Shown: positions 1 to 39,619, counted from the first letter of the stretch. The stretch is 44,689 nucleotides of DNA from Psammoneis japonica (GCA_008632985.1 QPGO01000342.1:1-44689), one strand, 5' to 3'. Notes: generated from the sequence alone by a model not told the origin. Program-made: numbers and translations.

Positions 1-616
1 GCGCGGCACAATAATGCTAAATCTGTCAGCAACAACAATTGAGCCTCTATTCACTCACAATTTGCCTCTAAGGACCATTTCTTTTCTATTACCATGTATA
101 TTTCCTCAATATATTCGACTGATTCAAGTGTATCAATCGTTTATGCCTTTTAAACCGTGAAAAATGGTCCGAAGTCGACGCCATTGCGTGGGCTGAGCTA
201 CACTTCTTCTCACGTCGTCCTAAACTTATTAATCAACGTATGCTTTATTCGATCCGTTGAGTGTAACTCGTATTTGCGTATATAAACAAAATATTAATTA
301 TGCTATGTTAAAGACTTAATTTATATATATTAATTTTATTTTATATGTTTCTTGTTACATTGAGGCATATATAAATCGCTAATCGGAAAATTCGAGCTCT
401 CAACTTACGGTACAATTTAGCGACTAACAACCGAGTCCATCAACAGTTTCGAATACATGGGTACACGCACAAGACAATTCTGTATGTACCCATAACAACA
501 CATTTGTAAATTGTTATGTTTTACTATCGAAAATGGTGCCGCAAGTGTGGACCGCGCGTTTCATGCAAAAAGGGTCATTTTTTCGCGCGTGAGTGCACCC
601 AAGTCTGGAACAAGTC

Positions 617-789
617 ACGCACACAAGTCGGTGTGATCGGGCTACTGTCATCATTCTTGTGAGCCTTGTGGCTCGAAAGCAAACTACATCGCGCGTGAAC
701 GCGCGGAACTGAAGCACATGAAACTGTGCACGGCAAACCAAACAGCACGCGACACTTCGCGCGCACCTGAATCCTGTTCAAATCCTGTC
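617..789 (-). repeat. Partial third LTR copy directly abutting the 3' LTR
   Basis: caagtcggtg...gagccttgtggctcgaaagcaaac...aatcctgttcaaatcctgtc matches LTR positions ~900-1064. Left boundary approximate. Confidence 0.9.
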
Positions 790-1065
790 TGATGGAAAAT
801 GAAGGCAAATGGCAAGAATTCAAACAACAACTCCTTGCTGCTGTCCAAACAGCAGATGAGTCTCCGCTCAGAGACCGTTGCAGGAGCCGAAAGATGTGTG
901 AGTCGGTGCAATCGGGCTGCTGCTGTCATTCTTGTGAGCCTTGTGGCTCGAAAGCAAACTGCATCGCGCGTGAACGCGCGGAGCTGAAGCACACAAAACT
1001 GTGCGCGGCAAACTAAACAGCGCGCGATGCTTCGCGCGCATCCAAATCCTGCTCAAATCCTGTCA
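790..1065 (-). repeat. 3' LTR of the copia element
   Basis: Aligns without gaps to 7623-7898. On the minus strand it starts TGACAGG immediately after the PPT and ends ...CCATCA. Confidence 0.93.
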
Positions 1066-4000
1066 CTCCCCAGTTTGCTTGAGGAGCCACAGAAACAGAT
1101 TCGACTTCGGATGGAATGAAGTTCCAGAACATGAGGGGGCGGAGAAGGTCCCAGATTTGGGAGTGACCCCAATGCTTGCTGAGAATGTCAGCAGGGTTGC
1201 GGGAGCCTTCGATGAAGTGGAACTCAAGGCAACCAGAGGCAATTGCCTCACGCACACGGTGGAACGACAGTGCGGTGTGTCGCTTGTGTAACTTGGAGTG
1301 CGGGATGGTGGCACTGTCTGCAACCGACTTGTTGTCACCGAACATGCAACTGACATTGCGGATCGGGACGCCAAGGCAGCGCAGGGTGATGCGCAGGTCG
1401 ACAATCTGCTCAACACAATTCCTTGCGGCAACAAATTCAGATCCGCAGGTTGCAGTCTCCACGGTGGCTTGTTTCTTGGAGAACCAATCAGCCGGGAATT
1501 TGTTGAGGAAGTGGAGCATTCCCATGACAGAGCGTCCGGTGAGCATGCAATGGCACAAGTTTGCATCGACGCAGTGGGTGGCAGTGACGAACTTGCCAAG
1601 GGGCGGTGGAGCATCCTTCGGGATCATCTCTTCTGCTTCACCATGCACGGAATGCATCCATTCGTAGGCCGGAGCAGGGAGATCCGAATGGTCGGGCTCT
1701 TCCGTGCGAACGCGGAGAGCACCGTGTCGCATCTTGGAGAGGCACCCACAGACGCGTTTGGCACGATCCAAGTGGCCTTGACGGGGCGCAGCTCGGAAGC
1801 TAGAGAGTGACATGACGGCCGTGGCAATGTCAATTCGACCAAGGGACACTGCCCATTGGAGTGAACCAACAAGAGACTGGAACTTGTGAATGCCATCGGG
1901 TCCCAGCAGTTCGGAAGTGTCCAGTTCGGGGTGGTCACCCTTCTCTAGAGGTGACAGGGCGTTGGTGGCAGGTTTCTCCCCAAACAGTCGGGCGCAGCTG
2001 TCGACCATGCGCTCGATGCACTTGCGCAGAGACAGGCACAAGGTTCCGTCGGGGTCCCGGGAAAAGTCGCAACCCAGATGGAACTCAATGGGTCCCGCAC
2101 CCTTGAGCTTGAACTTGCACTTTTCCGTGAGAGTGTCGATGAAAGATTGAGGGTCCTTCATGGCAATGGCGAGGTCATCCACACAAACGGCAATGTGTTC
2201 ACAGTGGTCGCCGTTCCTGCGCATCCAAATGTCGGGTTTGGCGCGGCAGGGGAAGAAGCCTTCAGCTCGCAGGCAGTCGGCGAAGCGCTCGTGCCAGCGG
2301 AGACCGGAGCTGCGGAGTCCATGCAGTGCCTTGTGGATGACAAGGATGTGTCCTTCGAGTTTGCCAAATTCGGGTCCAGCTACAATGTAAAGCTTCTCCT
2401 TGGTGGTGGCTTCAAGGCAGGCATTGCCAATGTCGGTGGCCCATGTCTCCAGCTCGTTGAGTTCGGCCAGGAAAATCATCAGCCGAAGGCCACGAAGGGA
2501 GACTGCTCCGGAGCAGACACTGTCGACAGGTGCGTCCGTGAGGTGCCCGTCGGCTACGAGTCGTGCCTTGTGGCGACCGTCGTGTTTCACGTCGCACACC
2601 AGGTGGACTCGGATCTTCTTGTGTCCCGCAGGAGGAGTGGAAGACTTGAAGGGCCCGCAGTCATGGAAGACTTCGCATTCGTCGAGTTGGTCCATCTCGA
2701 GATTAGTTGCGTCTCCCCACTTGCAGTTGCCATTGCGTTCATCCAGTGACATGGCGTGTTTGCAGTTCCGGGGAACTTCGCATCTGCACTTGTAGCGAGG
2801 TGCAGTGCGGAAGGAGCGAAGCTTGGCTTGGTTGGCCATGCGAAACAGCTTCTTTTGGCGCCTCGCGATGGTGCGGAACCGCTTCCATCCATCCGTGTCG
2901 AGGAGTCCGTTCTCTCGTGCACAGATGGCACAGGTGACGGGGTCGTCCTTGGCGATGATGGCAAGAGGCTCGGACGTGATCTCCCCACTTTCCCATTCAA
3001 GCATGATGTTGTAGCTTGAGCCTTTCCAGGTTGGGTCGTGAGGCTTCAGAGGGCCTTCGTGTGACACGATGCGTCGAAATTTCCAAATGGTGGTGTCTTC
3101 GTCTTCTTGCTCAATGTGATTCATGATGTCATTGCAGGCAAGGACTTCCTCGCATTCGTCATTGTTGACAGAGCAGACGAACTCAGTGAGCTCGGGATTG
3201 CCGCTCACTTTCCATTCATGGTCTTCGACGGCCTTGACGACACGAGCTCTGTGGCGTTGTCCGTCCTCTTGTGGCTGCATGAGGAAGGTACGTCCAATGA
3301 TGTCTTGCGGATCGAAAACTGGCATCTTGGGTGTCCTGATCTCCCCATCAGGAGAATCGACGGGGTTGTCGTCATGGCAAGATTTGATGATGGGTTCAGG
3401 TGGCTCCCCATCAGGAGGATCAAGACGCAGGTTTCGAACGGCAGGATCGGGGGTGGCGGAGCGAACGTTGGACCGGTGGAGGATCTTCTGAGTCTCGTCA
3501 GATAGAATCTTGAAGGTCATCTGGTGGCCGACGTGCTCAGCAATGCCAACGAAGCGCCCATGCAACTCATGAGATTCGGACGGCCAATCGGAGTCATCGA
3601 GGTGGAAGCACACTGGTTCCCACCAGTGAAAGCGAAGCAATGGGCTGATGTCCGGGGTGGATCCAGTGAGAGTCTCGAGGGGCGTGCGCCAGTGGAGACG
3701 TGGGGACGCTGCATGGTTGAGTGTGAAGCACACGCACATGAGCGCCAGCAGCCATGTGTGGGCGGGCGAACCAAAACGGTCCATGACAGTGTTCGCCATG
3801 CACTTCACAGTCTGGTGTCGACGCTCGGCAAAGTTTTGGTGTTGCTGGTGAGGCTCACTTTGCCAGCTGGAGATGAAGAGGGCGCGTAGGATCCCGAGCA
3901 CTTTGTTGCTGATCTCAACTTGAGCACGGTCGCTAATGAGTTTGGATGGTGCACCACGTTCACGGATCTGATCCTCGAGTGTGTTGACAAACTCTTTGTC

Positions 4001-6682
4001 CGTCTCAGTGCCGCAGACGTCAGTGACGGTAGACTCGGTGCCAACAAACAGTTGGGCGCTGGTGCAACCAGAGTCGACGGCCGGGGTGTCGGCACAAACG
4101 GTGTCAGTGGCGACAGGCTCATTGCGACGGTGAACATTGAGGGCGGGGTTGGGTGATTTGAAGGCCTTGCGAAGGTGTGTGCCGGCGGGCATGCGGGCGC
4201 ACTGCGTGGTGCAGTCAAAAGTACGACGGACCGCATCGGCAGGTGGGAAGCCAAAGCAAGGCCGAAGAGACTCGAAGGGTGGGTCCTTGGGCTGTGCAGT
4301 GCGCTCCGGAGGTGGAACGTCATCGCCCTTGGGGTCAATCGCATGCAGATGACACTCGCAGAACACGTCGTCGTTCGGAATGAGGTGATCATCGAGGGCG
4401 GATGCGTGATCGGCAGACAAGGAAGCAGACAAGATGGTCTCGTTGACAACGACACGGTGACGGCAGTTGCCGCATTCGTCAAATGGGTTGGCAGTGGGAT
4501 CGTCCTGTGGGTCAGAGATCGCGTTGCACCACTGGTCATCGTCAGTGACAGAGTGATTGAGGACGGAAGGGTCCCATGTGTCATCACCGGTGAGGATGAC
4601 GTGGGGCAGGGTGTCCCATTCGGCGTCAGTGTGAGGTCGCATGGCAACATGAGGCAGGCCAGCCTTGATGTCAATGGGGATGACATGGCCATCAGGAGTG
4701 GCAATGCGTTGCAAGCCGTTGGGCACCTTGACAGAGCGATCGTTGACATCCTGTTTGTGCCATTCGAGCTGGCCGCAGGAATGGATGGTCTTGCCCTTTC
4801 CCGTGTGTGCGCACTGATGGAGGATGGCGATGACGGGACCACGCTGGGTCTCAATGATGGCACCAGCGGTGACAATGGGGATGTCCACCAATTGATGATC
4901 GTCAATGCCCTGAACGTCGACTTGGCGAGAGGTGCGTGCAATGACGCGGACGTCGTCGCCAGCAATGCCGCCGTTGGCCCCACGATCGACTAGAGCGCCA
5001 GTGCGTGTGGAGCGATGAGCAGAGGCAGAGCAAATGACATTGTGGTTGTTGACACGGCGGCAAGTGCGGCCGTCAAGTTCCATGTCATCTGCAGAAGCTG
5101 GCGGGGTAGAGGAAGCGGCGGATGGCCCCGGTCGACTGGCATTGGGGGCTTGGTTAGGAGACAACAGACGTTGCAGATCACCGGGTGGCAGTGGCTTGCG
5201 CTTGGTGAGGTGCGCCAGGATGGGATCATCCGAAATGGCGTCCACATGTGCAGCGGAGTCACCACAGTCAGCAGGAGTCGTGTTGGACAAGTTGACATCA
5301 CCGTCACTCCCAAGGTGTTGGTCGTGAAGGTTGGCCGTAACAGACTCATGGCAGTTGCTGGCTCGCGGGTTGCGGGGAGGCGGACGAGAGTGCTCAAGGA
5401 TGATCGCCTTGGAGGAATCGGGCAACGAATCCCAGAGCCGTTGGTGGTCGGGAGGGAGACGTCTCCATTGGACACCAGCAATGCTGGGACCGCGGGTGCA
5501 GGCAGCATTGGCGTGAAGGACGTCAACGTCGCTGTCAATGTCGCAGAACACATCGTCGGACGGTTCCTCGGAGCAGACGTCGTGTGCGTGTGTGGCGCAT
5601 CGGGGAGCTCGAGGTGTCGTCTTGGGTTGAAACGTGCTGTCGCACTGAGCTGCCGCGGAGAGGAGCAAGCCACAGCATTGATCGCATGTGAGGCTCTTGC
5701 CACTCTGCGTACGATGCTGATCAGCTTGGTTCTTGACAGCACGGAGTTCCTCGACAGGGTGCACGGCATTCTCGAGCATGACGCGCTTCTGTCCTTCAGA
5801 GAAGTGGTCGCTGGCGGGGATGAGTGCCTCGCACTTGCGCAACTGATCTTGCCAATGAAGGATGAACCCGTGGGTCGGACCTTTCCAAGTGCCATCACCA
5901 AGACGTGCGGTGGTGAGGTGCGTGAGCAGGGTGGAGGACTCGACAGATGCACGGGTGGAGGCAAGCGCGCATTCAGACAAGGAGCGGCAGACGGTCTGTG
6001 CATCAGAGGACCCCACATTTTCACGAATGAGAGCCTTGCCCTTGTCGGTGAGAAGGATGCGTTCGAAGACGGCGAACATGCACTTTTGCTGTTCAGCAAA
6101 GAGCAGTTTGTCTTCGGGGCTGGTCGGTTTGTACGACGAGTCTAGAATGCACTCGACGTCTTGGGCACGGGCTTGTGCCACAAGTGAGGTGTGCCAAGTG
6201 TGCCACTGCTTGTCGGATTTGAGAGCCGTGAAAGCGGTGGGATCACGCTTGATGCCTCGCTTGAAGTCTCGCACCGGGTCGCGTGCCTTGGTCGGGTTGG
6301 TGACATGTGGAGGTGCAAGGGGTGAGCTGCCGATGGACAGAGAGGACATGCAGTCCGGGCTGAGGCGGCAGGCAAGGAACTCGTCATGCGTGAACAAAGA
6401 GGAGTCGTCGGCAACGTCAAGACCTTTGTGTGCTTTGACAATGTACAGACTGACCAGTGCTGCCAACATGTTCTCACAACCACGGGGCAAAGGGATTGCA
6501 CCAGTGCCGTTGTCGCACTCAAGCGAGTCGATTTGGGGCGGCATGAACGTGAACAGTTCCTGATGTGAGTCCGTGCCGTCTTGGGCCAAAGCCAAACGAA
6601 GAGGACTCCCAGCACCTTGGGCAAGCACGGTTCCAACCACGTGCTCGAAACCATCGGTTTGTTGCTGACGAGTGAGAACCAT
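1013..6682 (-). CDS. Copia gag-pol polyprotein; ORF open but probably inactivated by Tyr->Cys/His changes
   Basis: Gag DFKRGIKRD; protease LVDRGANGG; integrase VATDT...ISDRAQVE...QNFAERR; RT KARLVADGH, DIGNACLEA, KALHGLRSSG, VCVDDL; RNase H CVDANL, TCGSEFVAA, GDNKSV, NPADILSK. First ATG at 6682 (MVLTRQQQ). Confidence 0.93.
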   Translation of the reverse strand: MVLTRQQQTDGFEHVVGTVLAQGAGSPLRLALAQDGTDSHQELFTFMPPQIDSLECDNGTGAIPLPRGCENMLAALVSLYIVKAHKGLDVADDSSLFTHDEFLACRLSPDCMSSLSIGSSPLAPPHVTNPTKARDPVRDFKRGIKRDPTAFTALKSDKQWHTWHTSLVAQARAQDVECILDSSYKPTSPEDKLLFAEQQKCMFAVFERILLTDKGKALIRENVGSSDAQTVCRSLSECALASTRASVESSTLLTHLTTARLGDGTWKGPTHGFILHWQDQLRKCEALIPASDHFSEGQKRVMLENAVHPVEELRAVKNQADQHRTQSGKSLTCDQCCGLLLSAAAQCDSTFQPKTTPRAPRCATHAHDVCSEEPSDDVFCDIDSDVDVLHANAACTRGPSIAGVQWRRLPPDHQRLWDSLPDSSKAIILEHSRPPPRNPRASNCHESVTANLHDQHLGSDGDVNLSNTTPADCGDSAAHVDAISDDPILAHLTKRKPLPPGDLQRLLSPNQAPNASRPGPSAASSTPPASADDMELDGRTCRRVNNHNVICSASAHRSTRTGALVDRGANGGIAGDDVRVIARTSRQVDVQGIDDHQLVDIPIVTAGAIIETQRGPVIAILHQCAHTGKGKTIHSCGQLEWHKQDVNDRSVKVPNGLQRIATPDGHVIPIDIKAGLPHVAMRPHTDAEWDTLPHVILTGDDTWDPSVLNHSVTDDDQWCNAISDPQDDPTANPFDECGNCRHRVVVNETILSASLSADHASALDDHLIPNDDVFCECHLHAIDPKGDDVPPPERTAQPKDPPFESLRPCFGFPPADAVRRTFDCTTQCARMPAGTHLRKAFKSPNPALNVHRRNEPVATDTVCADTPAVDSGCTSAQLFVGTESTVTDVCGTETDKEFVNTLEDQIRERGAPSKLISDRAQVEISNKVLGILRALFISSWQSEPHQQHQNFAERRHQTVKCMANTVMDRFGSPAHTWLLALMCVCFTLNHAASPRLHWRTPLETLTGSTPDISPLLRFHWWEPVCFHLDDSDWPSESHELHGRFVGIAEHVGHQMTFKILSDETQKILHRSNVRSATPDPAVRNLRLDPPDGEPPEPIIKSCHDDNPVDSPDGEIRTPKMPVFDPQDIIGRTFLMQPQEDGQRHRARVVKAVEDHEWKVSGNPELTEFVCSVNNDECEEVLACNDIMNHIEQEDEDTTIWKFRRIVSHEGPLKPHDPTWKGSSYNIMLEWESGEITSEPLAIIAKDDPVTCAICARENGLLDTDGWKRFRTIARRQKKLFRMANQAKLRSFRTAPRYKCRCEVPRNCKHAMSLDERNGNCKWGDATNLEMDQLDECEVFHDCGPFKSSTPPAGHKKIRVHLVCDVKHDGRHKARLVADGHLTDAPVDSVCSGAVSLRGLRLMIFLAELNELETWATDIGNACLEATTKEKLYIVAGPEFGKLEGHILVIHKALHGLRSSGLRWHERFADCLRAEGFFPCRAKPDIWMRRNGDHCEHIAVCVDDLAIAMKDPQSFIDTLTEKCKFKLKGAGPIEFHLGCDFSRDPDGTLCLSLRKCIERMVDSCARLFGEKPATNALSPLEKGDHPELDTSELLGPDGIHKFQSLVGSLQWAVSLGRIDIATAVMSLSSFRAAPRQGHLDRAKRVCGCLSKMRHGALRVRTEEPDHSDLPAPAYEWMHSVHGEAEEMIPKDAPPPLGKFVTATHCVDANLCHCMLTGRSVMGMLHFLNKFPADWFSKKQATVETATCGSEFVAARNCVEQIVDLRITLRCLGVPIRNVSCMFGDNKSVADSATIPHSKLHKRHTALSFHRVREAIASGCLEFHFIEGSRNPADILSKHWGHSQIWDLLRPLMFWNFIPSEVESVSVAPQANWGVTGFEQDLDAREASRAV
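1066..1072 (-). other. Polypurine tract
   Basis: Minus strand TGGGGAG immediately precedes the TG start of the 3' LTR. Confidence 0.8.
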
Positions 6683-7611
6683 GGCAGACAAAAATGGTGT
6701 CAGGACAATCAATTCTGGTTGGGAAGCGAAGGTAGACTTGAAACTTGGGTGAGAGTGGACTTGACTTGAAATGGACTTGACTTGAAATCTTGAACCATCT
6801 TAAAATCAGAAGTCGCCGGGCTTTGTCATCCCATTCGTTGTTGAGTGCTAAACTTCCCATCCGGTCCGTAGAGTTGTGCCGGCACGTCCGAACCCGCAGC
6901 CAGCGGCGCTTTGGGTTGCTTGCGAGTGGAGTGGCGGGTTGTAAACCCCTGCAGGCAAGCTGACCAGAGGTGGACAAGACCCCCGAACCGTTCTTATTTT
7001 ATGTCGGTTGGATTTCCCGATCAGGCTGGCCAGTTGACGCAGGCGTTGGGCGCTGTGGACGAACGAACAAACGCGGGAAAGCACCCTCGCCCCAACGCAG
7101 GCTGCAATCATGGCCACTTGCTCTCACAGTCGTCCTCGTGGACCTAGTAGAACTGTAGAGCACCAGTAGTCCGGGGTAGATCAGGTACAATGGACTCGGT
7201 GTGCTTGTAGAGTGGTGGCAAAACCGCAGTCCGAAGAGTGGGTACAGGTTCTTGGCCGTGAAGACATGTATATATATATATGTCTTCAGCGACGAAGATC
7301 CTTGAATATGCAGGGTTCTTGACCGTTAACCGATGAATAGGTATATAAAGGGATGAGGATCAAGGATAGACTTGGATATGACCGTTGAATGTATGTCTTC
7401 AGCGATCAAAGGTAGTATAATCAATCCAGATATCCAGCGGTAAGGAGACTTGACGGTGACGTTAACTTCCTGCCGATGCCCTGGTATTGAATGCGCGTAG
7501 ACTTGCCGATGTATGTAGAATATATACGGAGGTCCACGTAGAATTAAAAATAGCGTCGTTGGTAAATCAACGACGACGATGGCGGTTGCTCAATGGGTTG
7601 ACAATGAGCAA

Positions 7612-7622
7612 GACTGTTAATC
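7612..7622 (-). other. Candidate primer-binding site complementary to the tRNA-Asn(GTT) anticodon arm
   Basis: Minus strand GATTAACAGTC directly follows the 5' LTR. Its complement GACTGTTAATC matches a tRNA-Asn anticodon loop with flanking stem bases. Confidence 0.65.
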
Positions 7623-7898
7623 TGATAGAAAATGAAGGCAAATGGCAAGAATTCAAACAATGACTCCTTACTGCTGTCCAAACAGCAGATGAGTCTCCAC
7701 TCAGAGACCGTCACAGGAGCCGAAAGACGTGCAAGTCGGTGCAATCGGGCTGCTGTTGTCATTCTTGTGAGCCTTGTGGCTCGAAAGCAAACTGCATCAC
7801 GCGTGAACGCGCGGAACTAAAGCACACAAAACTGTGCGCGGTAAACTAAACAGCGCGCGATGCTTCGCGCGCATCCAAATCCTGTTCAAATCCTGCCA
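7623..7898 (-). repeat. 5' LTR of the copia element
   Basis: 276 bp, about 17 substitutions against 790-1065, all transitions, no indels. Confidence 0.93.
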
Positions 7899-8472
7899 CA
7901 ATTCTGTTTCCATGTCATCGGCATGCCTGTGAATGTGATGTTCTTGATTTGCTGCTCATTGAGCAAAGGTTCAGTTCCAGGCAGTTTGTCAGCGCATGAC
8001 GCGACATTTGAGTCATGCTGTCAGCATGCTCGCAAGGAGAACCACCAAAAGGTTTAGAAGAATTTTTCAAAAATTCAAACATCGTGTTGTGCGCTTGATG
8101 ATCGCAGTGTCACTGACAAAAGCGTGCGATTTCTGCGTCAAACCTGGCCATGGTCCGATCTGCTTCCGCGATGCCTGAAACCAAATTGCTCCACACGTCT
8201 TGAGCATTGTCTTCCAACACTTCTTCAAAATGGGTGAATTTTTCAGGTCCTTCATCACAATCCAAACACTTGGCACAGTTCTCAAAACGCTCTGCAGTGC
8301 AGAGCAAGCACTCGATGCCGCACTTGCAGGTGAATTGAGGGCACATTTTCTGTTTCTCAGTGCCATTGTCGCAGCTCTGTGCGAGTTTCACTTTGTCCAA
8401 ATCTCCGTGTTTGAAGGTTGGTTTGTGTGCAAAGCACGGTGCTCTCAGCGAGGCTCTCACCAAATGCGACAT
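7899..8472 (-). pseudogene. Truncated gag-like ORF of a second (probably Ty3/gypsy-type) retroelement, cut by the copia 5' LTR
   Basis: MSHLVRASL...GPEKFTHFEEVLEDNAQDVW...ADRTMARF, then after a frameshift DKLPGTEPLLNEQQIKNITFTGMPMTWKQN, ending exactly at the LTR. TA-depleted. Family assignment is from recalled similarity only. Confidence 0.55.
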
Positions 8473-8977
8473 TGCGTTTGAGGCAAAGAGCTCACAACAA
8501 AGAAAAGAGAAAGAGAGAACAAGACACAGTGTGATCACAGTGAACGGTCTTGATGAGTTGTCCACGAGTGCTTTCTAAAAATTGTGGGAAAAGCTGCGAT
8601 TGACTGCAGCCACAGTGCTCGGGTTTCTGTTGCAGAATTTCTTCGAGGTGTCAACAATCCCGGTCGAATCTCCCGAATCTTGCAGCTGCTGACGTAATTA
8701 TGATGTAGAAGTTTGCTTCACATGATGCGTGAAGCAATGCCGAAAGGTCATTTTGATGAAACAATTTCGTCAAGTTCTTCTGTGTGTCTGTCTGTGTGGG
8801 CGTGTCTGTTGGGTTATGAGTTTGTGTCAGACCACCGCACAAAGAAGTCTGGAAGTATGTACCGGCACATTATCCCGGGAATACAACCCATGTTGTATTC
8901 CGTAGTATTTCTCCGTTGAATTCTACACATTGCACTGACCGTTACCCCACTTCAGCGACCGTATCTTCCGTGTTCTT

Positions 8978-9064
8978 CAGAGGTGCATAAATCGTCTGTT
9001 GTCGTTCGCACACGCGCATTCGCACGTTGCACGCGGGCGACAACAGACGATTTATGCACCTCTG
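8978..9064. repeat. Perfect 27-bp inverted repeat with 33-bp spacer
   Basis: cagaggtgcataaatcgtctgttgtcg (8978-9004) / cgacaacagacgatttatgcacctctg (9038-9064). Confidence 0.9.
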
Positions 9065-10402
9065 GTGTTCTTGTGGAGGAAGCACGGGAATTTTTCCCGT
9101 ATCGAAACAACCGGGTTGTTGCATGGTACGTCGCGTTTTTGATAGATTTATGCAACAATACAACCGAGACCATGCCGTCTAAAAAGTATTACAAGCCAAC
9201 CTTGATAGCACTCACGTTATTTCTTGGCGGGGTGACTTGTCAATGTGAACAAGACTTCACCAACCAGAGGCCATTCAAACAACCCCCAACGATGTCGTGG
9301 TGGATGGGTCTAAAGGCGTATGGAACGCCCGAACCAGGCGACAACAGCTTGCCCATGCAAGCAAGGTCAAATTGGTTGGAACACTGGAGGAAGCCGATTT
9401 CCAGCTACATGTCAAACCGGTTGGTGCCGTGGAATGTTCTGTCAAATCAAGGCAACCCGACACGATCAACTGACGTAAAAAACCCCGTGCCATGTTTAAC
9501 ATTCATATTTAATATTCTTGTTACATGTAGTGCGTGTCTAGGGCTTCATTCTTCCTTGTTCAATCCACAACATCGCTGGAGCGCCCCTTCCAATTGAAGC
9601 ATCATTTCTGTGCGCACGGCATCCAATAAATCCATCTGCACAGAATGGAATTTTGCACAACAAAACCAAGCCTCTTGGATTCCTTGTACAATTTCCATTA
9701 ATAATGAAACAAGAATCGCGAAAATCGGCCCAAGGGATGTTGAGATATCACCGCCGCCAACTCTTTACCATAAATTCCAGTGGCAGCTCAATTTTGATTA
9801 TTCAACGATAAGTTCCGAAGAGAAAGTCAGCACCATAAAAACCCAAGCCCCGTGGACACCTTATAGCACATACGTCAAAATAATGACAAGAAGTGAGAAA
9901 CAACACCAAAGATACAATAGTATATCACAAAAATCCGTCATGTTGATGCTGCATTCTCACAATTTCTGCACTGCACCTTCAGCGACAAATCCGCCTCGAC
10001 GGATTGAACTCAACGCCAGCACCACTAGCCCATCATATTACTTGTATAAAAGCTCCGAATGCTGCGAAAAGAAACGGGAAAGTACGGCAAAAATAGATAT
10101 AGATATCAGCGACGCAAGGGAGGCCATTGTCGCGATCGTTTTCTTTTTTGGTTGTCTTCGCAGCTGCGCGTCTTGGAGGGTGCTGCGGGTTGATGTAGCG
10201 GAAGTCGGTGTCTGTGCTTTCCTGGTGACCCTGTAGAAGAAGTACTAGACCCTACGCAGTTGTACCCAGGGTTGTATTCTTTCCGTCTACCTCCACAGTA
10301 AGTCGCGGTCTCACAGCGACAGCTTTTGTTCTTTCACAACTTTTGGACAACAGCAACAAGAACGACGAACGACAACAACAGAGGGAAAAAACGTGGAAAA
10401 CA

Positions 10403-11662: not shown

Positions 11663-11928
11663 ACTAGCTAAGCTGTGAGGTTTTGAATAGTGTTGGCATT
11701 CCTCACCTTAGTATGTATTATATGCAGTCGTTTCACCTTGTTGTTGTTGTAGTACACCCCTCGCACAGTTAGCTTACGGCTCATGTGCTACCTAGACGGT
11801 GATAAAGACACACCATGAACAAAACTAGCTAGAGTTAGAGTCAATCTTCCTTACCCGTAAAAGCGTTCCAAGGTGTTTCAAGGTCTATCCTTTTGTTTCA
11901 TTCCCAGCGAGTAGTGTCGGTCTTCTGG

Positions 11929-12170
11929 TCACTGCGACATCGGTGAGGATACCGTAAGCAAAACGCACTACCGGAAAAGGCTTTTCCTCCATTTCCTATC
12001 TTTAAAATCGGCGTCGGTATCAACAGACGCCAGTCTCCCGTCGTTTGTAAATACACTCGTGAAATCCAGACTCGTACCTATAAAACTATAAAATGATACG
12101 TATTGACTTGGCAAACAGTAGAACGTAGACGATATTTTAGAAACTTCTAGAATATTGTCAATTATTATAC
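11929..12170 (-). repeat. Dispersed low-copy repeat, inverted relative to 33945-34190 and a more diverged copy at ~33325-33605
   Basis: Reverse complement aligns with attgacaatattctagaag...ctcaccgatgtcgcagtgac. ORF-track peptides 11968-12177 and 34003-34287 are near-identical. Confidence 0.88.
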
Positions 12171-12177
12171 GAGGCAA

Positions 12178-12330: not shown

Positions 12331-12340
12331 CATTATTTCT

Positions 12341-14298: not shown

Positions 14299-16302
14299 CA
14301 CCCCTGTGGTACGGCAGGGGAGAATGTGGTGATGTCATGGTTACGTGGCAGTTTATATCTCACTCATTGCATTTTTGCACAAATGTTCTTGCACTCACTC
14401 ATGCACCTGCACACAAACGCCAATGGCAGCAGGAAAAATCCTGAACCATGTTCTCCCCTAAAACTCCAACCACCAAAAACCGAGGGTGCGGAAGCGCACT
14501 TTAGCAGCACTCTTTTCTTCGCACAAAAAACACACGTTTTGATGACTCGACCATGATGGTGCCTCGTGGTTCTTCCCCGTCGCCTTCCCAGGACGCCGAC
14601 CCTGCTGACGCCGTTGCCAATGACACTGACACAACAGGCGATGTCATCATTCTGGTTCTCATGGGTGTGATGCGCACAAAACAAGATGCTGCAAACTCAC
14701 ACTGTTGTTTGCGCGCTCCGCCGCCTCCCACAGATGCTGTCACGAATTCCAAGGCCGTGCCTGCGTTTCGCCCCCCCCCTGGCATGCCCGATGCTGTCAC
14801 TCCTGCCCTTGCTGCCGCAGGTGCTGTTGATGCTGTTGTTGTCTTTTGCCAATGACATCCACAACAAAATGCTTGCAACTCACACTTCTTTCATTCTCGC
14901 CCCGCCGCCTCCCACAGACACCATCACGAACTCCAACGCCGCACCTGCGTTTCGCCCCCCTGGCATGCCCAACACTGTCAATCCTGCCATCACTGCTGCA
15001 GCCACTGTTGATGCTGTCGTTGTTTTTGCTTTGGAAGGAGCACAATGGATGGCGGATGACGGCGGACCAGGAAACCCACGCAACCACGGCCTGCTGATGG
15101 ACGACACATCAATGGACATGAGTGGCGCCTCTTGGTTGGCTCTTGAGTGCAGTCTGATCTTTGGAATGCACAGGCACATTGTGCAGCTCTCTGCAAATTA
15201 GAAACCTCCCCAACAATTGGATGGCAGGCATGCTTTCACAGTTTTTTGGTTTCAAGTTGGAGAGGTCAGCGAGCTGGCATTTTTTTGCAGGCGACTTGGC
15301 AAGGTTTCAAATGGTGCGTGTGACTTGGACACTGCTCCATTTTCCAGGACTGGGTCATCATGTGCAATTCCATGAGAGGCCACTCTCGCCATTTGAGCTC
15401 CACATGTGATGCACAACATGCTGTTTTTGCAAGTTGCTGAAATGGAGGCAGGTGGCAACGTGCTTTTGGCAAACACTCACTGTGTTCACCACTGTTTGGA
15501 CCTTCAAAACCAGTGCCTTGTCGACAGCCATGCTGCTGCTTTGCATGCCGGCACCTTCTCTGCCCATGCTCCATTGGCTGCGCCCTCCTTCACATGTTGC
15601 TGCGGCTCATCTTGACACTTGTTGTTGGCTCCGATTGGCTCCGCTGGGCTCTGGGTGAGCCTCAATCACCTCCAGACAGAGGAGGTTGTGCTTGGGAACA
15701 ATCATCCTGAGAAAGGCCATCACCACACCTCCTGTCATGGATGCTCCTCTGCCATGCCCGCTGAACCTTGACGTCGGTTTGTTGCTTTTGTTTTTTACCT
15801 GGTTTTGGAGCTGCCCCCCAGACCGTTTGAGAGACAGCTCATCAGTGCCTTCCATGGCACGACGATGTGAACGAGAGCCCAGTTTTTCCGGGGACACAAT
15901 GACAGGAGCAGACCAGCCCCAGCACTGTGCTTGTGTTTCAGGCACAGGATCCGGCAAACAGAAGCCCAAATCCTCCGGATGGCACCGGCCAATGCAGGAG
16001 GAACTGCCATGTCAGACATGGCAGGCGGGGACACGTCAGGTGGTGTGGGCGACGAAGAACAGGAGGTCGTCATGGTCGAGTCGACGAAACGCGTGATGTT
16101 TTGGTGTGTGCGCAGTCTTCCAAAAAGTGCGCTTCCGCACCCTCGGTTTTTGGTGGTTGGAGTTTTGGGGGAGCTGTGGAATGGGAATTTTTGCTTGTGG
16201 AACACACACACACATGTGGATGTTAAGATTGAAACTCAACGCACGGCCAAGCCGTGCGCGCGCAACCACGAACACACACACAGCTCCCCTGCCACAGGGG
16301 TG
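14299..16302. mobile_element. Degenerate terminal-inverted-repeat (TIR) DNA transposon, TA-depleted
   Basis: Terminal IRs cacccctgtgg(tacg)gcaggggag / ctcccctgccacaggggtg. Subterminal IR of ~100 bp (aaaactccaaccaccaaaaaccgagggtgcggaagcgcactt at ~14460 vs its reverse complement at ~16126-16167). Internal duplication ~14715-14850 / ~14900-15030. Superfamily not resolved. Confidence 0.7.
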
Positions 16303-26270: not shown

Positions 26271-28613
26271 AGCCTTTCGATCCATGTGGGCCGAGTTTGA
26301 ATGGGAAAACAAGGTGACCATTTCAACGTTGGTTCCCAACTTGTTGGATTTTCTCCATGACATTCTGTCGAGTCGACCAACATGCGTTGCCTCACTCTGC
26401 ACGACACGTCGGAAACGGGAAGCTTCCTTACCGCCAATCTCTACGCACAACAGTGTTTGTTCTCGATGCGTGCTTGCCGAATGTTTCCCGGTTTCGTGTT
26501 GGATACTGCGTGACACGCTTTTTCATGAGTAGTGTGTGTTAAAACCGGGAGAAACGCGAAACTGTCGGCACCGGCAAGGTGCCTTGCGACGCATTCAGCA
26601 CTATATTGGAAGCACGAGAGCCTGCCAGTGTGGGATCAGTCCATACGCGTACCTTTAGCGCAATTGCGTATCATGTCAAGTTGCTGATACAACTCGAGTT
26701 TCGTAGTCTTTGAACCGACGACTAACACAAGCGTGCTTTTGTTGTTGTTGTTTTTTTTTTAGCGAAGACGTCCTTGTCCACGACAACGATGGCAAGTTGG
26801 CTGGGTGCATACGGATTCGTTCCAAGGCGCAAGGTGTTGCTCGGAGTTGGGAAGATATCATCACCAGCGTCCAGAGATCCATGTCTGAAGCCAAGGAGTA
26901 AACAAAAAGGTTTGGGATAGAGAACACAAAAGTATGCTCTTAACTAAAAATAAAACTTCCTGGGCATGACACTGCATGAACTGGCGCTACCGGTATGTGT
27001 TTTCAGCCTACTCTCTAGAGGCTTGTTCACTACTATAGTGTTGATCGTTCCCATGAACCAATCGGGGACGGGCCGTATCAAAAAGAAAAGAACCGAGAGA
27101 CTGGGCAGCATGTGGATCAAAGCAAAATTCACTGGCGACTGCTAGTGTCGATTGCTTCCTTGATTCAAATAAGGACGCGCCATAAAAAAAAAACAGAGGC
27201 TGGGCAGTATGTGGATCAAGCATCTAGCAATACATGCCGTGTGGTTGGCGATAGCAATAAGATTGTATGGGACCCATTTGAACGAGATGATTGAAAAGCT
27301 ACTACATGAATGTAAACAAGTTCTATACTGTATTTTTTCTTGACGCCACGGAATGTTCTCCTTTGTTTATTACAATAGAGAGGAGCCGCAATCCTTCATG
27401 GCGAATATACAAAGCCATTCCGTGACGCCCATACTTACCTTAACATTTCCATTCTTCCAAGGTCCATTCTCCGCATCCGAAATAAGTAAGGGTTTTGGTT
27501 CGTTGACTACCGCGGGTCTTGAGCAAATACAGAGTCGTCGAGTCGTTGAAGCACCAATCATGCCTGGTACACATTTTGTTCCGGAAAACACTAAGCCGCG
27601 GGGCGGGACCCACTGTTACTTGAACCTTGGTACTTCAAAAAGTCTGACTGCCGCATCGTTTCAAGTCGGGTTGTCGAACCGGGGTATAGGGTGTATTTCT
27701 ATGTTGACAAAAAGAATATGAAAAGCAACGTCAGTAAACAAATCTCAAATGAAAAGAAAAATAGACACGAAATCGACTTACATTGGGGGTGCATTCGAAT
27801 GTACGTAACGTAACACAACGAACGCACCCCATGGTACTGGCTAGCAGTGCCTTCAGACATGTCCTTCAGCCGATCAAAAATGTCCTCGGCCGGTGACGGT
27901 CGGCTTCAGTCGTTACTCTCGCCAGTTATTTACAGTACAGTACAGTGACGACCGCTGCCAAACAGCTGTTAAGTAAACGTGGAACAACTGATAGTAAAAC
28001 GATCGGACGTTTCTTAGCCGAACTTCAAGTTCCCTTTCAGCCAATCCGATCCTCACAAGAAAACGGTCGAAACGATGAAGAGCGAATTGGATCTCTCGAT
28101 TTTTCCCGTGATACCTTCGGACATCATACGTGACCTCCTAAGAAGTCCCAAGATGTTCCCTTGCAGGATGTGCACTTAAAGAAGAACCCAGGAATGTTCC
28201 TACATGACAAGAACAGAATTTGTGTGGAAAAGAAAGAACCAAAAGAACATTCTGCGAAATCGCCGCTCCAGAAATTCACTTCATAATTTCACACTTTTAC
28301 AGTCTCACTTTTCATGAACGACTCTTAAATTTACCACAATCACCCACAATGGGCCTTGTGCCACATGACAGGTTCGTCGTTTTGGGGTCAGATGTCTCGG
28401 GCGAACGCGAGTGAGAAGCTCAGATTCGGTCTTGAAGGGTGCATCATCCCACACGAGGATCAGCTCACCAACAATGACTTTCTTCTTCACTTCTCTCAAA
28501 CACTCCAAAAGCATCAAATTTCCAAGGTTGCTGCACCCGTCATTGCAACATCATTGTTTTTCTCGATCATCGACACTCTTTCGTGTGCTGCAAGCATTGA
28601 GTTGTGCGCCCCT

Positions 28614-28725
28614 TGATGTCATGGTGATGTCATGTTCACGTGATGAATTTTTGTGTGATGTCACATCATCAAATTTTGCATTTGCACACAAATGCCAACA
28701 GCAACAGGAAAAATCCTGAACCACA
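28614..28725 (+). repeat. Segment shared with the left end of the TIR element (14327-14448)
   Basis: ggtgatgtcatg...tgcacacaaa(t/c)gccaa(ca/tg)gca(a/g)caggaaaaatcctgaacca occurs in both places. Confidence 0.75.
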
Positions 28726-29019
28726 TTTTACTTGGCGACACACACATGTTCGCAAGAATGTGGGTGTGCTCGACTCAACGCATGTGATGATGTCATCGCA
28801 CATCACCCACACCTGCTGTGCATCCCACAGGACCACTTGCAAAGGGGTGTGAGTTGTGACACCTGTCAGAGAGCTTTGTTGGTTTCCGGGAAAGCTCAGT
28901 TTTTGGTGACAGTGAAGTTTGATCTCAGCACAACTCAATCGGGCGGCGCGCTTTTCAAAAATCCAGCTCCCGCGCCAATCGACACAAAATTCAATTGGGT
29001 GCCCAAAGGGCCAGCCACT

Positions 29020-29725
29020 GCCAGGGACTCATTGGCGTGTCACACTGAATGGTGGAACTGGGGTGTTTTGACATCACAGTTGCAGTGTCCCTCATGTCCT
29101 TGCATCCAGCGGCACCAAGGGTTGGACACCTGGACAAGGTGCTCCACATCTTTGCTTGTTTGAAGGCGCATGGAAAGTCTGCCATGGTGTTCAACAACAC
29201 CCCCAACTGACTCTCAACCAACCACACTTTCAAGAGTGTGGCTGGATGGAACACCATCCTGGGGCAGCTGAAGCTGTCCTGAGCAGGGACCTCCCCAAGG
29301 CACTGGGCAACAGCATTGCCACCACTTGTTTCGTCGACACGGGCCATGCTGGTTGCCGTGTGACATGACGATCCCACACTGGGATCATCATCTTTTTGCA
29401 ATGGGCCCCAATTTTGTGGTGCTCCAAGCGGCAGAATGCTGCACTGTCCTCAACCTTTTGGCTTGAATTCATTGCAATGAAAACTGCAGCAGAGAGCAGA
29501 TCCAAGCTTTGCACTGCAAGCTGTGAATGCTCGGTGTCCCCATCAAGGGACCAACCAATGTTTTCTGTGACAATGAGGCTGTGTTTGAGAACTCTGCATG
29601 GCTGGAGTCAACACTCGAGAAGAAGCACAATGCCATCGCCTGTCACCGGACACATGAGGTGCAGGCAGCTGGCATCATGCAGATTGCTTGGGAGGATGGA
29701 TGCACAAATCCAGTGGATGCATTGA
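29020..29725 (+). mobile_element. Copia RT C-terminus / RNase H remnant from a different lineage than 790-7898, heavily decayed
   Basis: QGLIGV...VELG, FVDTGHAGCRVT*RSHTGIIIFLQWAPILWCSKRQN, EFIAMKTA, KL*MLGVPIKGPTNVFCDNEAV, KKHNAIACHR, WEDGCTNPVD. Confidence 0.88.
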
Positions 29726-29729
29726 GGTG

Positions 29730-31440
29730 CTTTGGTGAATTGGCTGATCCAAAATGGACAGGCTGGGATTTTCCCCTCAAAATGGAAGGGGTTTTGCCCA
29801 TCCTGATGGAAGTGATGCAGCGAGATTTTGCCTGGACAGCAATGCAAAAGGCATGGGTTGTGTTTTGAACTGACCCAGCTGGGGCCAGTGTCAGCTCCAG
29901 GGGACTGAGCAACTCCAGCCATGCTGTCACCAGACAAGCGTTAGAACCGTTTGGCAAAGACCACCACTGTGGGTGGCTCAGAGCGACCCTCACAATTTAC
30001 AGAATCCTGTTGATTGCTGCAACAACACTTTTCTGTCAGATCTCATCCAATTCTTGGCAAGTGCAGCATGCTTGCCATTGTTCCAAGTTGCCTTTGCTCT
30101 GTCCAAGACTTTTTGGCTCAAGTTTGGTGTTGCATGGGTTTGGAGAACTCTGTGCCAAGAGCCTCTGGTTTGGATGAAGTCTCTCCAGCAGATTTTCTTG
30201 AAAAAGAGTGAGAGAGTTAGGAGCTTCTTGTGTTGCAGTCACTGCAGCCACTGCCATTTAAATGCCAAGCACCCTCCATTGGACATTGCACCCCCACAAA
30301 GTGGCACTGCACAACTGGGCATGAGCCAACGAGCAATGGCATCTGTTGGGTGGGTGAGTTTGGCATCTCTTGCTCCTCAAGCCAAGAAAGTCTCATGAGA
30401 AGCTCTCATTTGCAAACACTGGAGGCTGTCTGCAAGGGACGCAGCACACAAATGACAAGCTCATGGCACACTGCCAGCATGGATCTTGTCAAGCTGAGCT
30501 GTCAAGTCTGGCCAGAGCTGGCAGCTGCTCCATTGCAGTGGTGTCAAATCATTGCCACTTTTGTTTTGTGGACATGAGCTTGTTGCGCCAGAGTGGCAAA
30601 AATTGCAGCACTGCCAGTTGGCACAGGTGGCATCTCATTTGAGGACATGCATTGCTTTCCACATGTGATCTCTTGTCTTCCTTGTCTAGATCTGTCTGAG
30701 ATGCTGTGTCCATCCATTGGCTGCATCTGATGGAGTTGACCCTGCTCTGCAATGATTGGCAAACCTGGACCAGCTGCACTTGGGAGCAAGCAGCCCAGGA
30801 GCTTTCCACTTGTGCCTTGGACTGGGCAATGCTCTTGTTTGGAATGGAGGCAATTCCCCTAGAGTGACACCATTTGGGCCAGTGCATGCAGCCTTGCCTG
30901 GCTGTGCCCTCTCTCAGGTGGTTGGCTCGAGTTTTGGCAGGGTGGGCTGTTTGAAAGAAGACCTCCATTGTCCAGCACCACATGAGGTGTTGGGTGACCT
31001 GTTTGGCCCAGGTGGCAATGACAGCACCTCTCCCACCTTTGTTGCTCTTGAGTGCAGATGAGGCAGTGCAGCAAGTTGGCTGTCTCTCCAGCCCAAGGCA
31101 TGAGCGAAAGAAATCTTCTTTGTGTGGCAGTTGATTGCTGGCACCCATGATTGCCCACAAGCCTGAGAGTGGCTCTCCAACAGTGGCATCACAGCCCCAC
31201 AAGTGCAAACCTGGCACTCAAATTAGAGGAAAGCACTTTGCAGGTGCCTTCACTGAGCATGTCTTGCACGAGACTCAGCGCAGCTTGCTCCAGGCTGGCA
31301 AGCTGTGGTGGTGAGCACCTGGTGCCACACAGTGCAGCCCGAGCCTCATTATTTGGAAGCACCTTCGCTTTTTCAAATTGATGTGAAGCCTTCAGCCATC
31401 AACACATAGCCTGGCGAGAGAGCTTGATCACCAGCCCATC
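29730..31440. mobile_element. Unclassified decayed repeat-like sequence depleted in both TA and CG
   Basis: Composition only (saturated with TG/CA) and contiguity with the copia remnant. No motif recognised. Confidence 0.4.
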
Positions 31441-37300: not shown

Positions 37301-39619
37301 ACGTCAATTCATTTGGTGAAAATTGGTGAAGTACAGAGTGCAACGGGATTCACTAAGCGGCGCTAACGCACGAAGTGGTTTGGTGATGGGAAAAATCCGC
37401 GAACGACGCCATGGCGCTCGCTTTCGCATTGACGAAACACACGGCTGATGCTCGCTCTGCGCTCTGCGCGCTCGCTATTCGGCGCGGCCGGATAAAAATT
37501 GGTCGCACTGTCCGTCCGTCACCAGGCATCGGAGGTAAAAATCTGCCGCGATGCTCTATTCGCACCGGTACGAAGAACCGCCGTCATTAAAAGAATAGAA
37601 AGAGACATGTAAGAGATCACATTCTATTACGTCTACTTTACTATTTAAAGCACTGGTTTAAACATAAAGTTGCACTGAAACCCCCAAGCAATCCACAAGT
37701 CAGCGGTCATTTCAAGATCCTGCCGCTGGTGGACACCACCGCTCATCATGCCACATGCCTTCATGCGTTTCACGGCTCGTTCATTCGCCGACCGATCACT
37801 GGCTGCAGCTGCTGAGACAAGAACCTCTTCGCCGGTGAATTTTTTGTCACTTTTGGCAAAAAAGGTTGGAGAAGCAGCTGCCCTCCGGCACGCCAAGCAG
37901 CCAAAATGCTCCTGTGCCCCTTGTCCAGAACATTCGTGAAGGGCAAATCGGGTGAAGCATCACGCTCCTGCCGATTTTTGCCTGTGTGTTTTTTCGGGTC
38001 AGTCGCCGACTCACAAAGCTTGTTGAGGTGTTGTCTGACGCCGTCGTCCATCATTTTGACACTGTTTGACGTCGCTCCCAATTCTTGGGCACGCAATTCT
38101 GGCACACGGCATCCAGTCAGGTTCCAGGCATCGGGATTGCATTCCTTGCGCAGTGCATCTGTAGACAAAATGTGACAGAGACGCCACGTGCTGATGTCAT
38201 CGCGGGTGCATGCATCATTCAACTCTGGGGACTTGCATCTGAAAATGGCAACAATTTCGAGAACGGTGGTTGCGCCCGCTCCAACAAAGATTTCCGCCAC
38301 ATCCAACACAGTGGCAGTGGTTCCCTTGGTGGCAGAAGCGGTTTTACTGGCGCATCCAGGTGTCCATCGTCTCCACGAAACTGTGCCTTAGCAGAAAACT
38401 CCAGCGTTGGAATCCATGGATCGACGACATCATTGAATCCTTTTGAGATTCGAGCACTGCACCAGCTTCAGAGCTACAGTAATCTCGTCACCCGTTATAC
38501 CGACGCCACAGGTCGATAGCAAGCCAGGAGGAATCGATAAAGGTGGCTTTTAGATTCTCCGCAGATGTTACATGGTAGTTACTGAGTATCTGATACTCGC
38601 GTGATGCAATAACATTTTCAAAATATCCTGCGGAGGTTTGTCATGCGCAAGCCACCACTGTGATTTGGAGGCTTGACGTTTTGTAGCAAATTCCTTGTTC
38701 GCACGTAGCCGCCCCTCTACTCAGCAGCCTCTGGGGTTCCTCTTGCGCGGCTATTCACACTGACTTGAGAGACAAAAATAGAGAGATCTTTTAGAGCTTG
38801 CGTCTGTCAGGAAACACATGAGGTGAACCAGAGGGGCGAGCAACAACAAATACCTCGACAGGTTGGCCAACAAAATGAGGAGAAAACCTCGGTTCAGTTG
38901 ATAATGCTCCTTGTATTTGAAGCCCTCTCGCCTGTTGGAGTTCGACCTCGTCCACCTCAAATAGCTCGATTGCGAAATCTATCAGATCGACAAGTTGTCG
39001 CATGGCACCACCGAGTGAGGAATGAGGAACAAGCATTGGCATCTACTCTACTTACTAACTCGCCGTTGTCCTTCCCGTGCCACAGAGAGGGATATAATGA
39101 ATAATGTCATCGCGAGGGACGTCCTCAACATGTGAGTAGACGCCATGGCGTTCAAGATTCTGCCAAGACTAGGTGCAACCGGGGCAATAGGATCTACAAC
39201 ACTTTGACCCATTGCACTGCTTGTCACACGATGACTTCTCTCCTTGGCATCACATACAGTAACCGGGACCCACGACATTGGATGAGAACGGTGCGCCAAT
39301 GTCAAGACCTTTCACAGCAACCATTTTTTCGACAACCAAGCACGCACTGCCTATCACGGGTAACTTTGGGCTCTCATCAATCATCAAAGCGCGCATGAGC
39401 TCAAAAGTCCATTGTCGAATCCGTACGTCAGGTCGTAATCGACTCCTTTATCATACAGAAGGACAAAGTCTCACTCACGCTCCCTTCAAGATCCAGTAAC
39501 GTTTTTCTTCAAAGATTACGCGCCCAAAATTCCTTATACGCACGTCCTTGCCGAATCTAGCGATTCCAACTCTTGCTCGTATCCCTCGTTGCATTGTTGG
39601 ATATTTGGAATGAGTTGGG

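Follow-up and report, generated by a model that had tools for sequence, protein, structure and literature searches.

In the pennate diatom Psammoneis japonica, a Ty1/copia-type long terminal repeat (LTR) retrotransposon and several other repeats lying in one 44,689-nucleotide stretch of the genome (GCA_008632985.1, QPGO01000342.1:1-44689; hereafter the window, with coordinates counted from its first letter) have lost nearly all of their TA dinucleotides. Based on the spectrum of this loss, we propose that the diatom probably carries a mutator that turns TpA into TpG or CpA, that is A:T into G:C on either strand, and that hits transposons and repeats while sparing host genes, much like the process in the alga Bigelowiella natans, with mainly resident DNA as its likely substrate and a deaminase as a candidate agent. 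All contrasts between transposable elements (TEs) and host sequence given below are drawn from this 44.7-kb window of one diatom genome.

The number of TAs per 500 nt is one to six over 501-7000 and one in 8001-8500; the interval 1-500 has 52 and 7001-7500 has 31. The observed/expected (o/e) ratio of TA obtained from dinucleotide counts is 0.10 at 545-6700 and 0.04 at 7900-8640, compared with 1.01 at 1-526 and 0.45 in the open reading frame (ORF) of PDCD2/TSR4 (10343-11662; 41 TA), which bears out an earlier note on this DNA in its claim that TA is almost absent from about 545-6700 and 7900-8640 and plentiful in 1-530 and PDCD2. The loss is accompanied by an excess of TG and CA over the same two intervals (CA 1.55-1.71, TG 1.36-1.53) and is specific to TpA: in the main copia zone AA, AT and TT stand at 0.97-1.09 and CG at 0.91, and neither AA (o/e range 1.09-1.38) nor TC (1.26 in the copia element) is depleted. 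A two-state segmentation by TA content delimits five main depleted segments, namely 527-6800, 7861-8690, 14358-16223, 28340-31399 and 37670-38468 (TA o/e 0.04-0.10), and two minor ones, a short one at 18791-19254 and a weak one at 43978-44686; the remainder of the window has ratios of 0.55-0.79 and the left flank one of 0.99. Across 527-6800, 28 TAs are found where base composition predicts 290 and the window-typical ratio of 0.6 predicts 174 (Poisson p 6e-43). The edges are sharp: at the abrupt left boundary TAs occur at 507, 515, 522 and 525 and the next one only at 643. Furthermore, TA adjacent to A or T is lost first, while TA flanked by C or G persists: just 2 of the 46 TAs surviving in the five main depleted segments lie in an ATA or TAT context, versus 636 of 1348 in normal DNA, and among the 28 survivors of the copia zone none has a 3' T and one has a 5' A. 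TA before G is found among the survivors, and the 25 survivors within the ORF of the element are evenly distributed along it, without a gradient.

The main depleted zone and the parts of the copia element are the following:

527..6800, main TA-depleted zone, which takes in the polyprotein ORF with some 100 nt upstream of it as well as two LTR copies in tandem; 28 TA, o/e 0.10, TG 1.37, CA 1.53, CG 0.90
1013..6712, minus strand, ORF of the Ty1/copia-type polyprotein (P0001), 1899 aa, with Pfam RVT_2; frame open
788..1066, minus strand, 3' LTR (LTR-b), 279 nt, aligning without gaps to 7621-7899; one TA left
7621..7899, minus strand, 5' LTR (LTR-R), partially depleted; 5 TA, o/e 0.31
600..789, minus strand, additional LTR copy (LTR-a) directly adjoining the 3' LTR; good alignment only over its last ~164 nt
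6997..7620, minus strand, leader between the 5' LTR and the ORF, part of the high-copy element and not TA-depleted; 42 TA, o/e 1.02

The element is a Ty1/copia LTR retrotransposon, as it combines an RVT_2-type reverse transcriptase (RT) in a single polyprotein (PF07727, E 9e-22, residues 1361-1571) with direct LTRs. The third LTR copy is 88% identical over 626-789 to both 901-1064 and 7734-7897, and because it abuts the 3' LTR the target-site duplication of the element is not definable. No integrase match was found by Pfam at E<=0.01 in P0001, nor among the precomputed domains of its relatives. The polyprotein is 58-70% identical to many proteins of ~1900 aa from marine and sediment metagenomes, and a search of the protein database for same-species copies, with shorter lengths included, gave no match above 73% identity; the two top-scoring database proteins, P0242 and P0243, were considered as hypermutated copies and rejected, being internally duplicated instead. 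In 67 metagenomic relatives the density of TA averages 49.1 per kb, with a minimum of 28.4, and GC content averages 0.468, compared with 4.4 per kb and 0.576 in the ORF; by our estimate, roughly 250 TA sites have been lost from it.

The direction of the change can be read from the protein. P0001 holds six tyrosines among its 1899 residues (0.32%), as the earlier note had seen in a polyprotein it put at about 1890 aa, together with 3.79% cysteine and 4.84% histidine, whereas 120 relatives have 2.9-4.5% tyrosine, 0.5-1.5% cysteine and 2.6-4.6% histidine. Conserved columns, defined from an alignment with 60 relatives by the same residue in at least 80% or at least 50% of them, fall out as follows:

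Tyrosine in at least 80% (38 columns): P0001 has Cys 25, His 8, Phe 2, Trp 1, Tyr 2
Another residue in at least 80% (716 columns): P0001 keeps 655
Tyrosine in at least 50% (59 columns): P0001 has Cys 34, His 13, Phe 6, Tyr 5, Trp 1

The contrast between the 38 tyrosine columns and the 716 others is extreme (Fisher p 4e-33), and 47 of the 59 tyrosine-majority positions are now cysteine or histidine, including the catalytic YVDD motif, which reads CVDD at residue 1510 (codon 2183-2185). Seven motifs with tyrosine replaced by cysteine or histidine had been pointed out before; six of them lie at tyrosine-majority columns (residues 1432, 1464, 1510, 1714, 1756 and 1779) and one, VCDVKHDG, does not. 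That A to G change at TpA struck both strands of one element, as was also claimed, is borne out by the occurrence of both outcomes, cysteine (34) and histidine (13), and by the TG/CA doublets described below. TA to TG on the sense strand exceeds TA to CA (p 0.003), and the order of the two outcomes along the ORF (18 runs versus 19.8 expected) gives no hint of long one-strand tracts at a resolution of ~100 nt.

We then examined other copies of the family in four public runs of one sample, which is possibly the source of the assembly and whose platform is not on record, by aligning contigs to 1-20000. One run (X1) contains 61% of the sampled 31-mers of the element, and the three small runs cover the copia family alone. 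Summed contig depth, a rough measure and not a copy number, is ~66,000-152,000 over 668-8004 and ~60-130 over the unique stretch 10673-14007, so the family must be present in very high copy. A single contig reproduces the unique DNA of 10907-14282 without any difference over 3376 nt. Across the 20 kb aligned, other copies differ from the window at 828 places by transitions and at 188 by transversions. The best-supported 40 of the more than 1000 read differences were examined, and the 24 of these that lie within 668-8004 comprise:

Window TG or CA, TA in 48-98% of family depth (6 rows): 846, 1358, 2019, 2184, 2532, 7741
TG in one and CA in the other, as doublets at four sites (8 rows): 1028/9, 1377/8, 1644/5, 1689/90
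TA kept in the window, CA in other copies (1 row): 1665
CpG-type differences (5 rows): 1664, 2239, 2725, 2732, 2741
Other differences (4 rows): 1030, 2495, 4127, 6501

At site 2184, in the tyrosine codon of YVDD, TA is present in 83% of family depth. Differences of these kinds show that TA is the ancestral state and that copies were struck independently with either outcome, with ordinary CpG decay continuing alongside.

Comparison of repeats within the window gives the same picture. The TA-depleted pairs consist of three LTR comparisons, a pair of inverted arms, an internal tandem repeat and one short match, and as the LTR comparisons overlap, the 20 doublets counted below are not all independent:

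TA-depleted pairs: TG/CA doublets 20, TA versus TG or CA 13, CpG-type 12, other transitions 16, transversions 4
TA-normal pairs (eight): TG/CA doublets 1, TA versus TG or CA 12, CpG-type 11, other transitions 24, transversions 40

Transversions thus make up 4 of 65 events in the depleted pairs versus 40 of 88 in the normal ones, and the copies were mutated independently and on both strands. The 3' and 5' LTRs mismatch at 17 of 279 bases, all of them transitions; the 5' LTR retains TA at four sites that read TG or CA in the 3' LTR, and the extra LTR shows five doublets against each of the other two. In a three-way alignment, the two LTRs of the element have the same outcome, relative to the third, at five doublet sites and two TA to TG sites, and differ from each other at three doublets and four TA sites. 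These shared and private changes indicate that hits fell both before the copy was made and after its LTRs were separated; partly mutated elements kept on being copied.

The remaining main depleted segments are the following:

7861..8690, neighboring depleted repeat of another, lower-copy family (summed depth ~1,400 versus ~100,000 for the copia family); 2 TA, o/e 0.04
14358..16223, unclassified depleted repeat with internal tandem repeats; 4 TA, o/e 0.04, TG 1.70, CA 1.67
28340..31399, unclassified repeat depleted in TA and CpG; 9 TA, o/e 0.05, CG 0.26, TG 1.73, CA 1.88
37670..38468, short depleted patch, unclassified; 3 TA, o/e 0.07, CA 1.64, TG 1.40

In the segment 14358-16223 the internal tandem copies carry six TG/CA doublets in 130 nt, and 50-nt inverted repeats (14453-14502 and 16124-16173) differ between their arms at a single site, TA versus CA; we do not call this segment a DNA transposon, as no target-site duplication is visible at the inverted repeats and depletion extends beyond them. 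The ends of 28340-31399 are similar to 14402-14448 and 14167-14211. Its CpG is scarce (2 CG per 500 nt in 30001-31000), and the contrast between a CpG o/e of 0.26 here and of 0.90 in the copia element implies that decay at TpA and at CpG is separable and that the two elements differ in methylation history or age. For the 37 ORFs located in 7845-8578, 14364-16380 and 28329-31222, the best Pfam E value was no lower than 0.039.

Host sequence is spared in that the depleted segments correspond to the copia element and repeats, with two short depleted patches (18791-19254 and 37670-38468) left unclassified. Among named proteins, those most similar to the PDCD2/TSR4 product come from pennate diatoms (Cylindrotheca, Nitzschia, Pseudo-nitzschia and Fistulifera, 39-47% identity), which places the host in this group. 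The first of the two patches is 464 nt long, contains one TA (o/e 0.03) and is enriched in TG and CA; situated within a 410-codon open frame (18274-19506) near single-copy depth, it may reflect chance or a hit on non-repeated DNA. Elsewhere, four tandem 240-nt units with nested 27-nt sub-repeats span 21100-22090 across the ORFs 20817-21428 and 21484-23001, and look like part of a repeat-bearing host protein, for which Pfam gave no match.

The leader of the copia element is TA-rich although its summed depth (~100,000) is that of the rest of the element, and contigs from two further runs span 6997-7617 with 13 differences (X2) and 6997-7561 with 17 (X3). It contains a 28-nt palindrome with a TATATA core (~7261-7288), a motif, ATGTCTTCAGCGA, repeated at ~7281 and ~7393, and a TATA-box-like GGTATATAAAGGG (~7341-7353), features from which the leader may be a promoter or packaging region. 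Longer LTRs were rejected as the cause of its composition, since a blastn search of 6801-7620 and 1-545 against the window returned no partner. Among the possible reasons for its sparing are chance under a patchy action (compare the depleted patch within an otherwise normal ORF in one metagenomic relative, below), shielding of what resembles a promoter, conversion by a copy that had escaped mutation, selective retention of cis-acting signals where the lineage is mobilized in trans, and, if editing occurs in reverse transcription, brief single-strand exposure.

Normal TA is also seen in other repeated DNA. The stretches 8695-10672 and 16224-18009 have summed depths of ~1,800-3,900, compared with ~60-130 for unique DNA. 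One contig at single-copy depth links 10158 straight to 16322, a hint that there is a structural variant, or else that a repeat is interrupted here by the 6-kb block with PDCD2/TSR4. A recent segmental duplication with normal TA joins 31635-32611 and 43770-44489, 12.1 kb apart, with a 300-nt perfect direct repeat (31675-31974 and 43811-44110) and more matching pieces. Inverted repeats of ~240 nt at 11928-12165 and 33947-34190 are 93% complementary, lie 21.8 kb apart, have a partial copy at 33540-33606, and differ mostly by transversions together with ordinary transitions.

Comparable copia elements from the environment bear the same footprint in rare cases. Among 69 metagenomic loci (339 kb) that encode relatives of the polyprotein, one (L026) is TA-free throughout, with 3 TA in 2766 nt and cysteine or histidine at 20 of its 27 conserved tyrosines, and its bias (12 His versus 8 Cys) is opposite to that of the element in the window; another (L042) is affected in part, with a 702-nt TA-poor patch (956-1657) and cysteine or histidine at 8 of 24 conserved tyrosines. 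The other 67 have TA o/e ratios of 0.47-1.07. Among 118 shorter database proteins, two (P0268 and P0262) have 33-44% of conserved tyrosines as cysteine or histidine and the rest at most 10%. One shorter relative is named as coming from Cylindrotheca closterium.

A precedent is at hand. In a preprint dated 2026-04-14, Mettrop et al. describe de novo TpA to TpG/CpA hypermutation of integrated viruses in mutation-accumulation lines of the chlorarachniophyte B. natans (bioRxiv 10.64898/2026.01.13.699255). Of the 302 point mutations in the nuclear genome, 231 lay within an integrated giant-virus region and a virophage region; 230 of these 231 were A to G or T to C, and all 230 were on TpA. Hypermutation, at ~6e-7 per site and generation, was seen in 11 of 15 lines only; the genome contains 124 TpA-poor, CpA- and TpG-rich clusters, its low-TpA coding sequences are enriched for RT and DDE Pfams, and an ADAT2-like adenine deaminase is proposed, without proof (bioRxiv 10.64898/2026.01.13.699255). 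In the text of the preprint, the words diatom, stramenopile, retrotransposon and LTR do not occur (bioRxiv 10.64898/2026.01.13.699255), and our full-text literature searches found no description of TpA hypermutation in diatoms. The earlier note had posited an undescribed mutator aimed at TEs, subject to a check of the literature: A:T to G:C change at TpA in repeats and transposons with host genes spared holds, as does the lack of a diatom report, while the preprint, which has the same signature, takes away the word undescribed. What we read as new here is the occurrence of the same kind of process in diatoms, on LTR retrotransposons and near saturation.

By analogy, the process acting in this diatom would be the same in kind as that of B. 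natans. We lean toward an action mainly on resident nuclear DNA, in patches of less than a kilobase to kilobases and repeated over generations. The chemistry could be deamination of adenine to hypoxanthine by an enzyme of the ADAT/TadA type, a suggestion we offer tentatively; the natural target of these enzymes is A34 of tRNA, which follows U33 and thus forms a UA step. The outcome would be a permanent inactivation of mobile DNA, functionally analogous to fungal repeat-induced point mutation (RIP) and opposite in direction. From the genetic code, change of TA to TG or CA creates no stop codon and removes TAA and TAG, so the frame of the polyprotein has stayed open though its catalytic tyrosines are lost; the many long overlapping ORFs that are present would have the same explanation.

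An alternative that we consider unlikely is editing at birth, in which a single-strand adenine deaminase would act on the RNA (giving sense TA to TG) and on minus-strand cDNA (giving TA to CA) during reverse transcription, such that copies integrate already damaged. APOBEC3G acts on retroviruses by a comparable logic, on C rather than adenine, and in retroviral APOBEC3 gradients the side of the primer-binding site is single-stranded for the least time; the spared leader adjoins just that side, where single-strandedness would be shortest. The sense-strand bias of 34 cysteines to 13 histidines fits such editing as well, as do the abrupt edges with no leakage into the left flank and the circumstance that, the copia element alone having been classified, none of the depleted elements is established as a DNA transposon. 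The 25 TAs surviving in the ORF are, however, even and without the gradient that would go with it, and of the changes specific to one LTR 7 of 10, scored by eye, run in the predicted direction, which is not significant. The LTRs of one insertion differ from each other by TG/CA doublets and the adjacent third LTR shows other outcomes again, depletion is common to several repeats of the window that are unrelated to one another, and the signature of B. natans arises in culture in resident single-copy viral DNA without reverse transcription.

A different chemistry with the same signature seems quite improbable. As A to G on one strand is indistinguishable by sequence from T to C on the other, thymine at TpA might be oxidized or modified (TET/JBP-type formation of 5-hydroxymethyl- or 5-formyluracil that mispairs with G), and 5-hydroxymethyluracil in dinoflagellates is indeed said to favor TpA and TpC; the copia element, however, shows no shortage of TC (1.26). 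Error-prone repair of the Pol eta kind in silenced chromatin would likewise hit TA, its errors favoring WA (W being A or T), but AA is not depleted (1.09-1.38).

That there is no mutator at all, and that the scarcity of TA comes instead from descent or selection (codon usage, evasion of a TA/UA-cutting nuclease or GC-biased gene conversion) or from an artifact of assembly or base-calling on modified DNA, has in its favor that TA is under-represented window-wide (o/e about 0.6) and that the runs, of unrecorded platform, are perhaps the assembly's own source, but is barely credible and largely refuted: catalytic tyrosines are replaced while other conserved residues are retained, non-coding LTRs are struck too, copies differ by TG/CA doublets, TA stands in most of the family depth at six sites (among the best 40 of the more than 1000 differences), and an independent metagenomic contig, L026, has the same pattern. 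Selection against TA is rejected by the loss of catalytic tyrosines, and GC-biased gene conversion by the normal state of the remaining dinucleotides that contain A or T. Decay of 5-methylcytosine is rejected with a CpG o/e of 0.9 in the copia element, and the earlier note was right that neither it, nor RIP, nor ADAR editing of the sense strand only fits. A base-calling artifact on modified DNA is unlikely, as 31-mer contigs at a depth of ~60 match 3.4 kb of unique DNA perfectly, which is not expected of noisy long reads.

Several points weigh against the mutator of resident DNA that we favor. The restriction to TEs rests on a single 44.7-kb window. As the copia element is the only one classified, the depleted elements might all be retroelements that underwent editing at the RNA or cDNA stage, and the sense-strand bias would also fit some editing of sense RNA. 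The TA-rich leader and the TA-normal stretches of raised depth, depth being a rough measure, mean that repeat status alone is no predictor of depletion. The evidence from reads comes from the best 40 of more than 1000 differences in one sample of unrecorded platform, and the deaminase chemistry is unproven in B. natans as well.

It is possible, if rather doubtful, that TpA hypermutation is an old or repeatedly evolved genome defense of algae of the stramenopile-alveolate-rhizarian (SAR) assemblage, diatoms included, in which a natural DNA adenine deaminase is guided to mobile DNA, acts in sub-kilobase patches on resident DNA, recurs over cycles of transposition and disables elements without making stops. 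If so, it would mirror fungal RIP and be the first process in nature to correspond to the adenine base editors of the laboratory. Hypermutation of selfish DNA from A:T to G:C at TpA had not been recorded before 2026, and the single report is a preprint on viral insertions of one rhizarian alga; the diatom finding suggests that the process is limited neither to one lineage nor to viral DNA. It also sets constraints for any mechanism, which has to act on TpA only, take ATA and TAT first, hit both strands, be patchy, recur both ahead of insertion and after it, leave sharp edges and operate independently of CpG decay. Furthermore, it offers a comparative route to the enzyme, through genes common to B. 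natans and affected diatoms and absent from unaffected ones, and some diatoms are genetically tractable. Dead elements with long open frames would, in turn, be overcounted by gene callers and in estimates of TE activity.

Among known systems, the element itself resembles the Ty1/copia elements of diatoms, presumably of the CoDi type, in its polyprotein of ~1900 aa, RVT_2 domain and LTRs, here of 279 nt; it differs in being a dead copy with an open frame and cysteine or histidine at 47 of 59 tyrosine-majority positions.

With APOBEC3 and ADAR the process would share a deaminase logic, that is, clustered transitions with a preference for neighboring bases that inactivate mobile elements. APOBEC3 deaminates C and yields G to A on the sense strand only, whereas both strands are hit here. 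With ADAR, changes are limited to the one RNA strand from which copies are subsequently made; it also edits after A and favors a 3' G. Here, in contrast, both strands are hit (13 of the 47 tyrosine changes being sense T to C), AA is intact, TA before G survives, and the LTRs of one insertion differ by doublets. A preference of ADAR for a 5' U is cited in the Discussion of the B. natans preprint (bioRxiv 10.64898/2026.01.13.699255).

RIP of ascomycete fungi is comparable in being a permanent, transition-only and dinucleotide-specific mutation of repeats that proceeds copy by copy, on both strands and with fairly sharp edges. It depends on duplication and on a premeiotic stage. It changes C to T, mainly at CpA, and thereby raises TpA, lowers GC and makes stops, whereas in the diatom TpA is destroyed, GC is raised (0.576 versus 0.468), no stops are possible and some stretches of raised depth escape depletion.

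The closest likeness is to the hypermutation of B. natans, with which the footprint shares a near-exclusive A to G or T to C change at TpA with TpG or CpA as the outcome according to strand, a limitation to foreign or selfish DNA (the host mutation spectrum being normal there and host genes normal in composition here, in one window), and a long-term legacy of TpA-poor, CpA- and TpG-rich DNA. In B. natans de novo events were seen in resident DNA, in some lines only and at about 1e-7 to 1e-6 per site and generation, while the diatom process is known from its footprint alone; the host is a chlorarachniophyte (Rhizaria) in the one case and a stramenopile in the other, the targets are single-copy viral insertions there and a very high-copy LTR retrotransposon with other repeats here, and against an o/e of 0.45 in the nucleocytoplasmic large DNA virus (NCLDV) region of B. 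natans, the segments of the diatom stand near saturation at 0.04-0.10.

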